A DNA stretch of 60,586 nucleotides, filler included, from Dugesia japonica (lineage: Eukaryota), in NCBI GenBank assembly GCA_001938525.1. It is 6 parts of 6 records of this genome, joined end to end, with 100 filler letters (N's around TTAATTAATTAA, not from the genome) between each part and the next. Parts side by side here need not be neighbours in the genome. Positions count along the whole stretch, not along the records: positions 9,474 to 19,626 come from MQRL01608441.1; 5 more parts are not named here. The stretch is one strand, 5' to 3'. The position numbers were made by a program, and so were the translations under genes. The notes beneath the pieces are model-generated. The model was not told where the DNA came from and did not search any database. It worked only from the letters and a program-made list of their open reading frames with translations. Positions within the stretch are counted from its first letter, which is position 1. Every line of letters starts with the position of its first letter. This document shows, piece by piece, positions 11,085 through 19,306 of this stretch.

Positions 11085-11348
11085 TAGTCAATATGTTCCT
11101 AAGTAATCTTCCAGATAGGAGGAAGTGAGTGAAGGAAAGTTGTCCGTTTGTATGGGTTCCTTAAACTGGTCCCACCATCGTTGGTTCCAATACCGTTCAG
11201 CTGCGTCAAGTCGTCGTTGAAGAGCAGCCTTTGCTGGGGGTAAATTTTATCTGTCGACCAATATGCCCGCGTTTTTACGATGCGGGATTTTAAACCGATG
11301 GAAAATCATACGGTTAGTTGTGTGGTCCAATTCCAAACTTCACTACAC
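11085..11348 (-). pseudogene. Decayed homolog of the orphan ORF at 18902-19306
   Basis: Minus-strand translation **SLELDHTTNRMIFHRFKIPHRKNAGILVDR*NLPPAKAALQRRLDAAER aligns with WEVLWDRYAQRTIFKRYRNPHDRNAGLMVDYSIVSPEDADSEREWAATER. Confidence 0.7.
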
Positions 11349-11384
11349 CTATTTATTGTCTTAATCATTACACGAACTTAGGGA

Positions 11385-11594
11385 TCAAGGGTCATTATTG
11401 TTAAAAGTTAGGGGAAACATCTCATCGAAGCAAAACAGATCTGTCTCATCTACATGTTCGATTCTCTCCGCAGATAAGATATGCGCAAGTAGTTGCCGTC
11501 GGCGAGCCTTTCTTCTTTCACGATGGATGATCTGCAGAACATAGGATACATAGTCAGGCATAATGCTAAAATAGGAACGATTAAAAGGAGGCAA
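11385..11594 (-). CDS. Small orphan ORF with a basic NLS-like patch
   Basis: GC-richer island with an open frame, ...HRERRKARRRQ...; no recognised family. Confidence 0.35.
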   Translation of the reverse strand: MPPFNRSYFSIMPDYVSYVLQIIHRERRKARRRQLLAHILSAERIEHVDETDLFCFDEMFPLTFNNNDP

Positions 11595-13239
11595 GAATTA
11601 TGATGATACAAGTTAAATCTAACTACACTTTCTCATAAATTTATCCTGACCACAACTCTGTTAACATGATATTAAGTGGGTAAGAATCAGAAATTTATAT
11701 AATATCAACATTGATTCAGGAAATTTTGGCTTTGACTATCTTTACATTAATCATAACAATCATAAATCTAAAACTATGGACCTTGAGAATAAGGACGCTA
11801 CCATAATGATACAGTAGTAATAACAATAACCAGGCTATTATCTACGAGAATGAGGACTGTAAAAAATTATTTTAATAATAACAATAAGAATCATGAAATT
11901 AATATAGAATTGCTACGAATTCTAGCAATGATAACCATAATAATAAGACTAATATGAGTATTCATAATAATAAAATGATGGTAGCCTTAGCGGTATAAAA
12001 AAATAGATGCTAGTGATAATCTCTACATTGATTTAAAATTTATTCACCACTCATTTTGATAACGTTAATGGTACACTTGGAATTTTAATAGTATCTTAGT
12101 ATTAATCTTTCTAAAATGGTTAATAATGCGAATAATTATAATAAAGGAAAATATTGATTGCACTTATAATAAAATCTATTAAAAATTATGATTTGGCTAA
12201 CACTAATCAGAATCATAATGGCAACAAGTAGTAACGATACTAGCATTGGTAATGAAGAGTAATAATACTATCCTCATAATAATAATAATAAATGGCCGCT
12301 ACCAGTTTGTGCTACTTTCTCTTTCAATGGTAATAAAAAGAACAATGGCAACGATAACAATAATGGGGATAATAAATAATAATAATAATGATAATAATAA
12401 TAATAATCACTACTAAGGTTAATAATTTTGGCTTTGACTATCTTTACATTAATCATATCCAGAACGTACGAAAGTCATGAGTTTGCAAATAAACACTACT
12501 GATGATTAACTTTAGTGAGATTAAAAGAAATCGAGAAAATACGTGTAACCTGTCACTCATAGAACTAGGATAAGCACATACCTATCTGGTAGATACAGTG
12601 GTGCGTCATTGCACGACTCATGAATAATTTAAGGCGATGGAATTCTCATTAGGGCCAACGGCTTGAAATATTGATTCTATCCAATTCATCTACATGACTA
12701 ACTGATATATGAGTTTACTTCCCCGAGTATGTGTGCGAGTTGGTTTCCTCATCGACAGAAGATGAATTTATCGTACTTGCGAGTGACATTTCAACGTACA
12801 GAAAATGTACAGAAAATCGATTTTTTNAATTCTAAAACGTGATCATTAAGAAAATATTTGCATCAATGGATTTTCTGTGAATAAGCCGAGAATTGCATCT
12901 GGCTATATCTATTAATTATAAAGGAATATCGTCTAATTCTATTCACCTATAATAGTCAATTAATAAATGGAATAAATGTATCATATAACACTGTCAAAAA
13001 CAATTTATTAGGTTGATTATAACTTCATAGAGCATTAATCAACATTTTACTCACTTATTTCAATGGAATTTTGAAACGTCAAGATTTGATAATAACGCAA
13101 AGTGGTGAGTTTTCTGTTAATATTTTTTTATGTTGAGTGATTTGCAAACACTGTTTTAATACTGAATTTCGCTTAAAATAACTGACTTTTTGTTACAAAA
13201 TTTTCGAGGCTTTTAAACTGTTTTCTGTGCACTCCAACT

Positions 13240-13410
13240 CTTTCGACATTGGTTTTTCTTTTTAGTTTAATCTTCAAGCTTCCTTATTGGCTCTTGGTCT
13301 GATTTTTCTCTGTCTTTGATTGGTGCCTATTTTTAGAGGCCATCTGACTTTTTATTTCTTGTTTTTTCTATGGCCTCTCATTGGCCCAATTTTTAAGCCT
13401 TTTTTCCAAC
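13240..13410 (-). promoter_or_regulatory. CCAAT-rich promoter-like block, related to 16260-16470
   Basis: Four CCAAT boxes on the minus strand. It shares CCAAT.AG.GGCCA..GAAAA, GTCAGATG and TCTAAAAATA...CCAATCA, in the same order, with the plus-strand block. Confidence 0.45.
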
Positions 13411-17539: not shown

Positions 17540-17715
17540 CAAATTAAAAATAATTAATAACGTACTAAACAACAATTTTATTAAGAAAATTATAAGATGA
17601 ATATATAAATCAAATTAAAAATAATTAATAACGTACTAAATAACAATTTTATTAAGAAAATTATAAGATGAATATATAAATCAAATTAAAAAACTGATAA
17701 TGTAATAAATAACNN
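17540..17715 (+). repeat. Tandem repeat, ~71 bp unit, just over two copies
   Basis: AATTAAAAATAATTAATAACGTACTAAA...GATGAATATATAAATCA repeated head to tail. Confidence 0.85.
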
Positions 17716-18437
17716 NTGTATTAATAAAATGATAATTTAGCATCACAAGGAAAAAATATTGTCATACCCAAATGTATTAAAAATCATCAAATCCAGAATA
17801 ATCGAAATTCCCCAAGAAATCCACTGATGAATGACTATAAATAATTTGTGAGCAACTGCTGAAGTGGAAGCGGATAACTAGACTGGGATTCTAATTATAA
17901 AATAAGTAATAACACTACACATGTATGAAACTTTGAATGCAGACGAGACACACCTACTCCTGATTCCCATTGGAAAATATTTTGATACAAGCATGATTAT
18001 GACCTTGGGGGTAACCAAGGGCAACTCAGGTTGCGGAAATTTCAAGGTATAAAAAGGAGATAATTTGAGACAAAATCCATAGGCTGAAACTTATCTAAAA
18101 TTAATAAAATATTTTGTAAGCCAACCGGGTACAAATCATAATACGGCCGGATTCTACCAGTTATTAAAATCTTAAGACCTATTTTTATAGTTACCGTATT
18201 AATAATAATAATACCCATAGTGATGGTGGTCGTAAATAGTAATAACGATAATAATTATGATAAGGAATAATACTGTTAACAATGATAATAATATCGATAC
18301 TAATAAGTAGTACCAATCCTAATAATAATGATAATTATAATAAGGAGAATAAATAGTAATGACCATAACCATAATAATAATAAATAACGATAACACCAAC
18401 GATATTGATAATATTCGAGTCAACTAACGACCCGTCT

Positions 18438-18776
18438 TTAGATTCCCAGGCCACCTTCCCCTTCTACACATTTATGTAATTTAACTAAAAATTTACAGTA
18501 ACGATTTTGTTTCAGCAATGACTGCCAGATTGAGGAACATGTTAAGTTGGATCCAAAAGCAGCGTCGAACTGCCAGAATGAAACAATTGTTAGTACACTA
18601 CTTAACCAAAGGGGCTGTGGAGCACCACGACGAAACCGACCTACAGTGTTTCGTCGAGATGTTCCCCCTGGAACATAAAGTAGACATAGATGAATAGTAG
18701 CTCCACTTTCTAGATCAAATCCCCAATCACCAAAATGCAACCAATGGCTATATTTAATTACCCTATTTTCTGGCAA
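18438..18776 (-). CDS. Orphan ORF, divergent from the 18902 ORF
   Basis: 112-codon open frame in a GC-richer island; no recognised family. Confidence 0.35.
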   Translation of the reverse strand: MPENRVIKYSHWLHFGDWGFDLESGATIHLCLLYVPGGTSRRNTVGRFRRGAPQPLWLSSVLTIVSFWQFDAAFGSNLTCSSIWQSLLKQNRYCKFLVKLHKCVEGEGGLGI

Positions 18777-18901
18777 TAGTGATTTTTATTTTTAAATAAA
18801 ACAAATTGAGTGTGTTACTTGCGTAATTCTTGTTGTTATTTATTCCTGTTGTGTGATGATCGGGTTTAATCTGTGATATTTTATTTTTATAGTATTAAAC
18901 A

Positions 18902-19306
18902 ATGGTCTTCAAATGGGAAGTATTGTGGGATCGATATGCCCAACGTACCATTTTCAAGCGATATCGTAATCCACATGACCGCAACGCTGGGCTCATGGTG
19001 GACTATTCAATTGTATCACCAGAAGATGCCGATAGTGAGCGAGAATGGGCAGCCACTGAACGCCAGGCTTATCTGGAATGGGACGGTCCCGATAGGAGTC
19101 GCGAGGTATTACACCGCGTCACATCAGTCGATCCAATAACAAATCGGGTTATTACCCATTGGCAGGAGGGACCTTCCTTGATACCAGTTCCACTTGGTCA
19201 CCTGTCTAAGAGTACCACCTTCATAATTGACATAGGAGATCATGTGTGGGAACTCCCGCCACTGCCCGGCGGGGGGTCAGTTGAACAAGCTGGACCCCCG
19301 GCGTGA
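18902..19306 (+). CDS. Orphan 134-aa Trp-rich protein of a small family with a second copy in this contig
   Basis: Intact ATG-TGA ORF, much more GC-rich than its flanks, with an acceptor-like TTTTATAG just upstream; protein-level similarity to 11085-11348(-). Confidence 0.65.
   Translation: MVFKWEVLWDRYAQRTIFKRYRNPHDRNAGLMVDYSIVSPEDADSEREWAATERQAYLEWDGPDRSREVLHRVTSVDPITNRVITHWQEGPSLIPVPLGHLSKSTTFIIDIGDHVWELPPLPGGGSVEQAGPPA

Follow-up and report, generated by a model that had tools for sequence, protein, structure and literature searches.

What are small open reading frames (ORFs) that belong to no recognised family, and that recur in opposite orientation on a single contig of the planarian Dugesia japonica? 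We addressed this question in a 60,586-nt stretch of assembly GCA_001938525.1 (the window), which consists of six contigs joined by linkers; the contig in question (MQRL01608441.1, positions 9474-19626) is flanked by two N44-12-base-N44 linkers. We found that it carries two inverted units, which point away from each other and each combine a promoter-like block with members of two undescribed small protein families, A and B. In the explanation that we favour, with a probability of roughly 55%, the sequence features suggest that A and B are accessory genes located within, or directly after, the long terminal repeat (LTR) of a giant Gypsy-type retroelement, similar to Burro or GLT.

Two orphan protein families

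Family B comprises three copies: an intact ORF of 134 amino acids (aa; B1, 18902-19306, plus strand), a broken copy that has no start codon and is interrupted by a stop at 11249-11247 (B2, 11088-11339, minus strand), and a third copy, likewise without start codon, that is truncated by the contig end (B3, 19489-19626, plus strand). The initial annotation had described two copies of an orphan family, in opposite orientation and with diverged DNA, and this relationship proved significant: B1 and B2 are 37% identical across 51 aa (E 7.6e-6 in tblastn), their Smith-Waterman score of 85 (z 12.5) was reached by none of 2000 shuffles, and their DNA is about 60% identical along 120 nt. The number of copies had to be raised from two to three, with the overlooked B3 being 45% identical to B1 over 40 aa (E 5e-8). 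A profile of the three copies, run against 1.84 billion proteins, retrieved one outside homologue, P0007 (E 3.7e-14), a 94-aa ORF on a single 512-nt contig, which shares the start methionine of B1 and is 50% identical to it over 66 aa.

Family A consists of the 59-aa ORF A1 (18518-18697, plus strand) and the 58-aa ORF A2 (11385-11561, minus strand), which are 45% identical over 62 aa (E 6e-10, z 27.8). Other orphan ORFs had been reported at 11385-11594 and 18438-18776; the region is real, but both belong to this one family, and the latter is an antisense shadow of A1, which appears as a long minus-strand frame at 18438-18785. The N-terminal half of the A proteins is basic (+5 to +7), and the conserved C-terminal half is acidic (-6 to -8). 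With this build, A looks like an adaptor in the style of Tat, Rev and E1A, small viral regulators that are made of basic and acidic parts in a similar manner.

Judging from the aligned sequences, it is safe to regard both proteins as having been under past selection, as the initial annotation had supposed for B. In four pairwise blocks of 33-51 codons, which were picked by protein alignment and are thereby biased toward a selection signal, nonsynonymous differences per site (pN) amounted to 0.38-0.42 against synonymous differences (pS) of 0.64-1.06. Selection on the proteins is indicated because pN stays near 0.4 while synonymous sites approach saturation; third codon positions are the least conserved (identity 0.25-0.40 vs 0.55-0.67 at second positions), and the outside homologue P0007, together with the gap between pN and pS, makes this conclusion safe.

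The searches for an identity, summarized in the following, yielded no family, fold or viral match for A or B, in agreement with the earlier statement that no family was recognised. Homologue searches, confined to proteins of near-equal length, returned none for B1, for the A alignment or for ORF C, a third frame described below, which was searched with an X at its stop. No annotated protein was found for either family. Pfam and PHROGs gave nothing above noise, the best E in a PDB sequence search was 0.3-0.6, and Atlas gave no usable match for B1 or P0007. We found no related locus in JGI metagenomes, viral contigs, prokaryote genomes or phages, and a viral relative turned up for none of A, B and C; Rfam returned two chance-level matches only, and no tRNA gene was found. 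A literature search, which did not cover most subscription journals or Repbase, found no report that describes the A and B families or their layout. The repeat DNA itself may already be catalogued under another name, and accessory ORFs of giant LTR elements are of an already known kind.

An AlphaFold model of B1, obtained as the initial annotation had advised, reached a mean predicted local distance difference test score (pLDDT) of 46, with a hairpin at residues 4-21, a helix at 40-59 and a second hairpin at 70-89. With low confidence, the model suggests that the conserved 60-residue N-terminus of B may form a hairpin and a helix. The advised Foldseek comparison gave no usable fold match (best E 0.23 among viral structures and 1.2 in the PDB) and is uninformative, as the model is too poor. 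A suspected likeness of the B N-terminus to WW or AP2-like beta-sheet domains was not supported by Pfam, in which neither B1 nor P0007 had a match even with E as high as 10. An internal repeat in B1 was likewise sought and rejected (z -1.1), and sequence comparison rejected A and C as relatives of B.

Promoter-like blocks and processing signals

Each A gene is preceded, about 2 kb upstream on the same strand, by a promoter-like block. The left block (13195-13440, minus strand) contains CCAAT at 13384, in the 13327 region, at 13290 and at 13252, and a TATA-like motif at 13217; the right block (16207-16481, plus strand), which has the highest summed depth among the bins of the right unit, contains CCAAT at 16264, 16333 and 16384 and TATAAAA at 16457. 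The two blocks align in inverted orientation with a score of 87 (z 9.2; none of 200 shuffles as high), against z 0.4 in the same-strand control. Because the blocks are homologous, inverted and identical in the order of their CCAAT and TATA motifs, we conclude that the contig holds two promoter-A-B units. The CCAAT and TATA motifs of both units would provide an RNA polymerase II (Pol II) promoter in the terminal region. Four further DNA blocks, compared between the left and the right unit, gave z 3.1, 0.4, -1.1 and 1.6, and we claim no homology for them. We therefore read the contig as carrying, in a back-to-back arrangement, two distantly related copies of a single repeated element, in which the promoter-like block is followed by A and B about 2 kb later. 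Besides B3, the initial inventory had missed family A, the homologous promoters and the layout of acceptor-like and poly(A)-like signals.

These signals recur at the ORFs with a regular spacing. A T-rich pyrimidine-AG lies 2, 4 and 9 nt before the ATG of A1, A2 and B1 and 11 nt before the Met-equivalent codon of B3, that is, at all four testable starts; B2 was excluded from the count, its start being lost. Elsewhere, the same rule is satisfied at 21 of 326 ATGs of the contig, at 8 of 87 ORFs of at least 40 codons outside it and at none of three host genes. AATAAA is found 97, 27, 68 and 24 nt past the stops of A1 (at 18795), A2, B1 (at 19375) and B2 (the final stop), and thus within 110 nt in four of four cases, compared with a background of 0.13-0.30. 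The spacers from AATAAA to the following acceptor measure 97 nt from A1 to B1, 102 nt from B1 to B3 and 58 nt from ORF D, a further short frame, to ORF C. On this layout, A and B appear operon-like and are predicted to yield separate mRNAs.

One transcript from the promoter may accordingly be resolved into separate A and B mRNAs, each with its own splice acceptor and poly(A) signal. Two routes, with about even odds, could lead to this outcome: cis-splicing that joins a shared leader to alternative last exons, an arrangement used by complex retroviruses and adenoviruses, or spliced-leader (SL) trans-splicing over the spacers of about 100 nt. A common cis-spliced leader fits as well as trans-splicing because candidate splice donors are present upstream in both units; a common coding first exon is unlikely, as the four acceptor-to-ATG distances correspond to different phases. 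In the excerpt available from a study of Macrostomum and C. elegans operons (PMC8629364), trans-spliced genes are most often separated by about 100 bp, and such SL trans-spliced operons of flatworms and nematodes share with our units the same-strand neighbours about 100 nt apart and the acceptor near each 5' end. Unlike in these operons, the ORFs described here sit on a repeat rather than being host genes, the RNA runs described below showed no read that carries a leader, and the upstream donors also allow cis-splicing.

Three further features lie between the promoters and the A genes. In the right unit, a 104-nt GC-richer island (17944-18047, plus strand), preceded by an acceptor-like AG and followed by a donor-like GT, is a possible internal exon, and an AAT-rich tract upstream of A1 (18186-18425, plus strand) is either a decayed Asn-rich frame or a tandem repeat. 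In the left unit, two exact 34-nt direct repeats (11722-12457, plus strand) enclose a 668-nt AAT-rich tract (11756-12423), which is near single copy in DNA runs and likely a later insertion with an unusually long target-site duplication.

Repetition, expression and the class of the element

Runs X1 (presumed DNA) and X4 (unlabelled), as contigs, and two RNA runs were placed on 10400-19626 at 86% likeness; summed contig depth is here a rough measure of repetition (tens- to thousands-fold) and not a copy number. Long left-arm contigs run across A2 and B2 with 97-100% identity at a depth of 6-18, and the left unit is therefore real and near single copy, a low-copy relic. The right unit is a high-copy repeat, presumably dispersed: single-site summed depth reaches 390-3400 (X1) and 170-3100 (X4) in A1, B1 and B3 and 110-730 in ORF C, and bin means across 15944-16559 amount to 35,000-57,000. 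At many sites, including the breaks in B3 and C, the right copy of the window differs from nearly all of the mapped depth, which marks this copy as individually decayed; both units of the window are decayed copies. Of the inferences of the initial annotation, a mobile, high-copy origin of the right unit is supported; gag-pol and an LTR pair were not detected in the contig.

From the two RNA runs, X21 and X22, of which 6% and 25% were read, 63 and 1062 reads were placed, and 63 of 63 and 1060 of 1062 fit in part only, mostly on an unrelated repeat at 10478-10531. This short repeat, which occurs also at 21092-21204, has a very high copy and is present in RNA reads of both runs; directly behind the second copy lies a 26+26-nt hairpin, and the repeat is possibly similar to miniature inverted-repeat transposable elements. 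Six X21 reads match up to 18667, the end of the conserved motif of A, then run on unlike, and may stem from an expressed relative of A. RNA mapping, which the initial annotation had recommended as a check, placed no reads on B in these portions of the runs. Since knockdown of smedwi-2 releases planarian LTR elements such as GLT2 and BURRO1 from repression, as the excerpts at hand report (PMC8532177; PMC10954484), silence in ordinary samples is expected for a planarian element; the silence of GLT2 in the absence of a PIWI knockdown is in keeping with the blank RNA runs seen here.

Depth and expression also bear on the alternative that A and B are host genes, a lineage-specific family that segmental duplication has spread, with the promoter block as an unrelated repeat nearby. 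Such a family would be in line with the ordinary Pol II signals, with purifying selection on A and B, with the low depth between promoter and A1 and perhaps with the six X21 reads. We nevertheless consider it very unlikely in view of the same order and orientation of promoter and A-B in both diverged units, the depth far above single copy, the decay of copies one by one, the lack of RNA on B and the lack of an annotated A or B protein in our searches.

The right element likely has its 5' end at 14874, where it begins with TGTTG (14874-14878, plus strand); counting back from either of two joints (14899, side 26, and 14901, side 28) leads to this position. The right CCAAT/TATA block lies 1.6 kb inside this TG end, and the contig stops 4.75 kb past it, with the right unit running off the contig. 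On the minus strand upstream of the right promoter lie two further frames: ORF C (14954-15523), which is coiled-coil-like, comprises 152 aa to a stop at 15067-15065 followed by 36 more open codons and has a weaker AG 3 nt before its ATG, and ORF D (15623-15775), the weakest of the parts described here, a short broken frame with two internal stops and no homologue, with AATAAA at 15585. We take 14874 to be the 5' end of an LTR, which would place C and D antisense in its U3 region. Near this end, at 14965-14995, the summed depth is extreme (about 195,000 at 14990), and a few RNA reads fit in part.

A long LTR fits best because of the TG end, the multi-CCAAT/TATA block 1.6 kb inside it, the high copy and the decayed copies. 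Nothing in the contig fixes the element class, and the units might belong to another kind of large element, such as a tyrosine-recombinase retroelement, a Penelope/Terminon-like element, a Ginger-like DNA transposon, whose ends also begin with TGT, or a Helitron. A six-frame Pfam scan of the contig, with matches in none of six frames, found no transposase, recombinase or reverse transcriptase; Rfam gave no match at a meaningful score and hence no known hammerhead, and the position of the multi-CCAAT/TATA block, 1.6 kb from the TG end, is in keeping with a long U3. These other classes therefore appear quite unlikely.

The divergent gene arrays around one promoter block could also be what is left of an endogenous DNA virus, or of a virus-like DNA element (Polinton-like or PIVE/PEVE-like), with divergent units that would be spliced in the manner of adenoviruses. 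The acidic motif of A, which we take to resemble the regions through which proteins of small DNA tumour viruses bind Rb, points in this direction. Planarian virus-like elements exist, according to the part of the report available to us (PMC3198968). The same Pfam scan found no polB, capsid, packaging ATPase or helicase in the contig, which is incomplete, and no relative turned up among viral contigs or phages. A was rejected as an LxCxE Rb-binding viral protein (pattern after ELM), with no such motif in A1 and LxCxD only in A2. Polintons, furthermore, begin with AG, whereas the right element begins with TG. A DNA virus thus remains an unlikely source of the units.

Several observations weigh against the giant LTR retroelement that we prefer. 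No gag, reverse transcriptase, integrase or env was detected in the contig by the six-frame Pfam scan, which is insensitive (one of two Gypsy controls was detected), a second LTR was not found in the contig, and at 14874 no polypurine tract adjoins and no primer-binding site was recognised by eye. From promoter to A1, the depth of the right unit falls to 50-175 (16560-17791), and the two are not bridged by any contig of X1 or X4. Regarding the pairing of the units, the upstream region of the left unit aligns at z 1.6 only, and C and D are not detectable there. The acceptor rule was fixed after the sites had been seen, a stricter setting fails B3, ORF C passes the loosest setting only, and AATAAA was not found within 110 nt of its stop. 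In the portions of X21 and X22 that were read, RNA depth is zero over 18716-19626, which holds B1 and B3, and neither an RNA joint nor a leader-like loose end was recorded.

The earlier statement that no host gene is present holds for this contig, given the empty Pfam scan; elsewhere in the window, other contigs do carry host genes. These contigs contain a Pus10 gene (2444-3731), an M60 peptidase in a single ORF of 570 aa (26793-28505), a DM-domain gene (54896-56288) and a fragment of a Tc5/CENP-B transposase (58989-59435), which together identify the host as an AT-rich animal. Gypsy pol relics lie at 21941-24857, again on another contig. At the start of our contig, a long, decayed plus-strand frame with many stops (9474-10445) is rich in K, N and I and has no Pfam match. 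A cluster of short AT-rich ORFs at 40000-48500, on another contig, gave no significant Pfam match for the four frames scanned; by eye it recalls Polinton or adintovirus genes, with a presumably penton-like frame at 40971-41369 and a presumably phospholipase-like one at 47864-48430.

Relation to known elements and biological meaning

The setting in a giant planarian LTR element, which the initial annotation had proposed by comparison with Burro, received two soft supports, namely the TG end with its CCAAT/TATA block and a weak likeness, found by eye, between ORF C and GLT2. For the latter we used the first 400 characters of each GLT and GLT2 probe in the supplement of PMC8532177. On the reverse strand, the GLT2 probe has by eye an open frame after a T-rich AG, in which 10 of 29 ungapped residues are identical to residues 47-75 of ORF C. 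The hand-summed BLOSUM62 score of 46 corresponds to E of about 0.007 for this pair by itself and of about 0.25 once every probe and ORF compared is counted, and the likeness is hand-scored and coiled-coil-biased, which also counts against our preferred explanation. In the visible parts of the GLT and GLT2 probes, by eye, a short GC-richer frame follows an AT-rich AG, CCAAT lies upstream in the GLT probe, and A and B were not seen. With such a distant likeness, GLT2 is at most a relative.

Burro (GYPSM1) of Schmidtea mediterranea, as far as the excerpted description goes (PMC6431247), exceeds 30 kb, occurs in thousands of copies and carries accessory ORFs upstream of its polyprotein as well as tandem repeats; high copy, accessory ORFs and tandem repeats are shared with the units described here, and Burro has been proposed to meddle with host systems. 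The extras described for Burro consist of domains already known (BIR, BCL2, MATH, ankyrin, env), most of which belong to a polyprotein of 4,873 aa, whereas our contig, compared with Burro by description only, encodes orphans of 58-150 aa with their own acceptor-like and poly(A)-like signals. The plant Ogre/Retand elements, in the parts of the sources at hand (PMC11963269; PMC6431247), resemble our units, whose long LTR is putative, in having long LTRs, additional ORFs without a known function, antisense ORFs and tandem repeats, and in the Tat/Rev-like roles proposed for them. In contrast to C and D, the antisense ORFs of Retand sit between pol and the 3' LTR, and a multi-gene array with acceptors and poly(A) signals is not described in those parts.

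Interference with the cells of their host is commonly ascribed to giant planarian retroelements, and their extras described so far, in the sources as excerpted, are captured known domains. In our preferred explanation, A and B would most likely be small proteins that regulate either the expression of the element itself or the host cell. A wider and rather doubtful extension is that a family of giant animal retroelements carries operon-like arrays of small orphan genes on both sides of the LTR promoter, possibly inside the LTR, where solo LTRs would retain them, and that host SL trans-splicing would turn these genes into separate mRNAs for regulators of stem-cell or neuronal gene control. If the retroelement explanation is true, selected small protein families that are processed as separate genes would mean that an element of an invertebrate has complex, retrovirus-like expression. 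Should the arrays be part of the LTR, numerous coding cassettes would be dispersed across the genome along with solo LTRs. The A and B families provide concrete targets for existing RNA data from PIWI knockdown.

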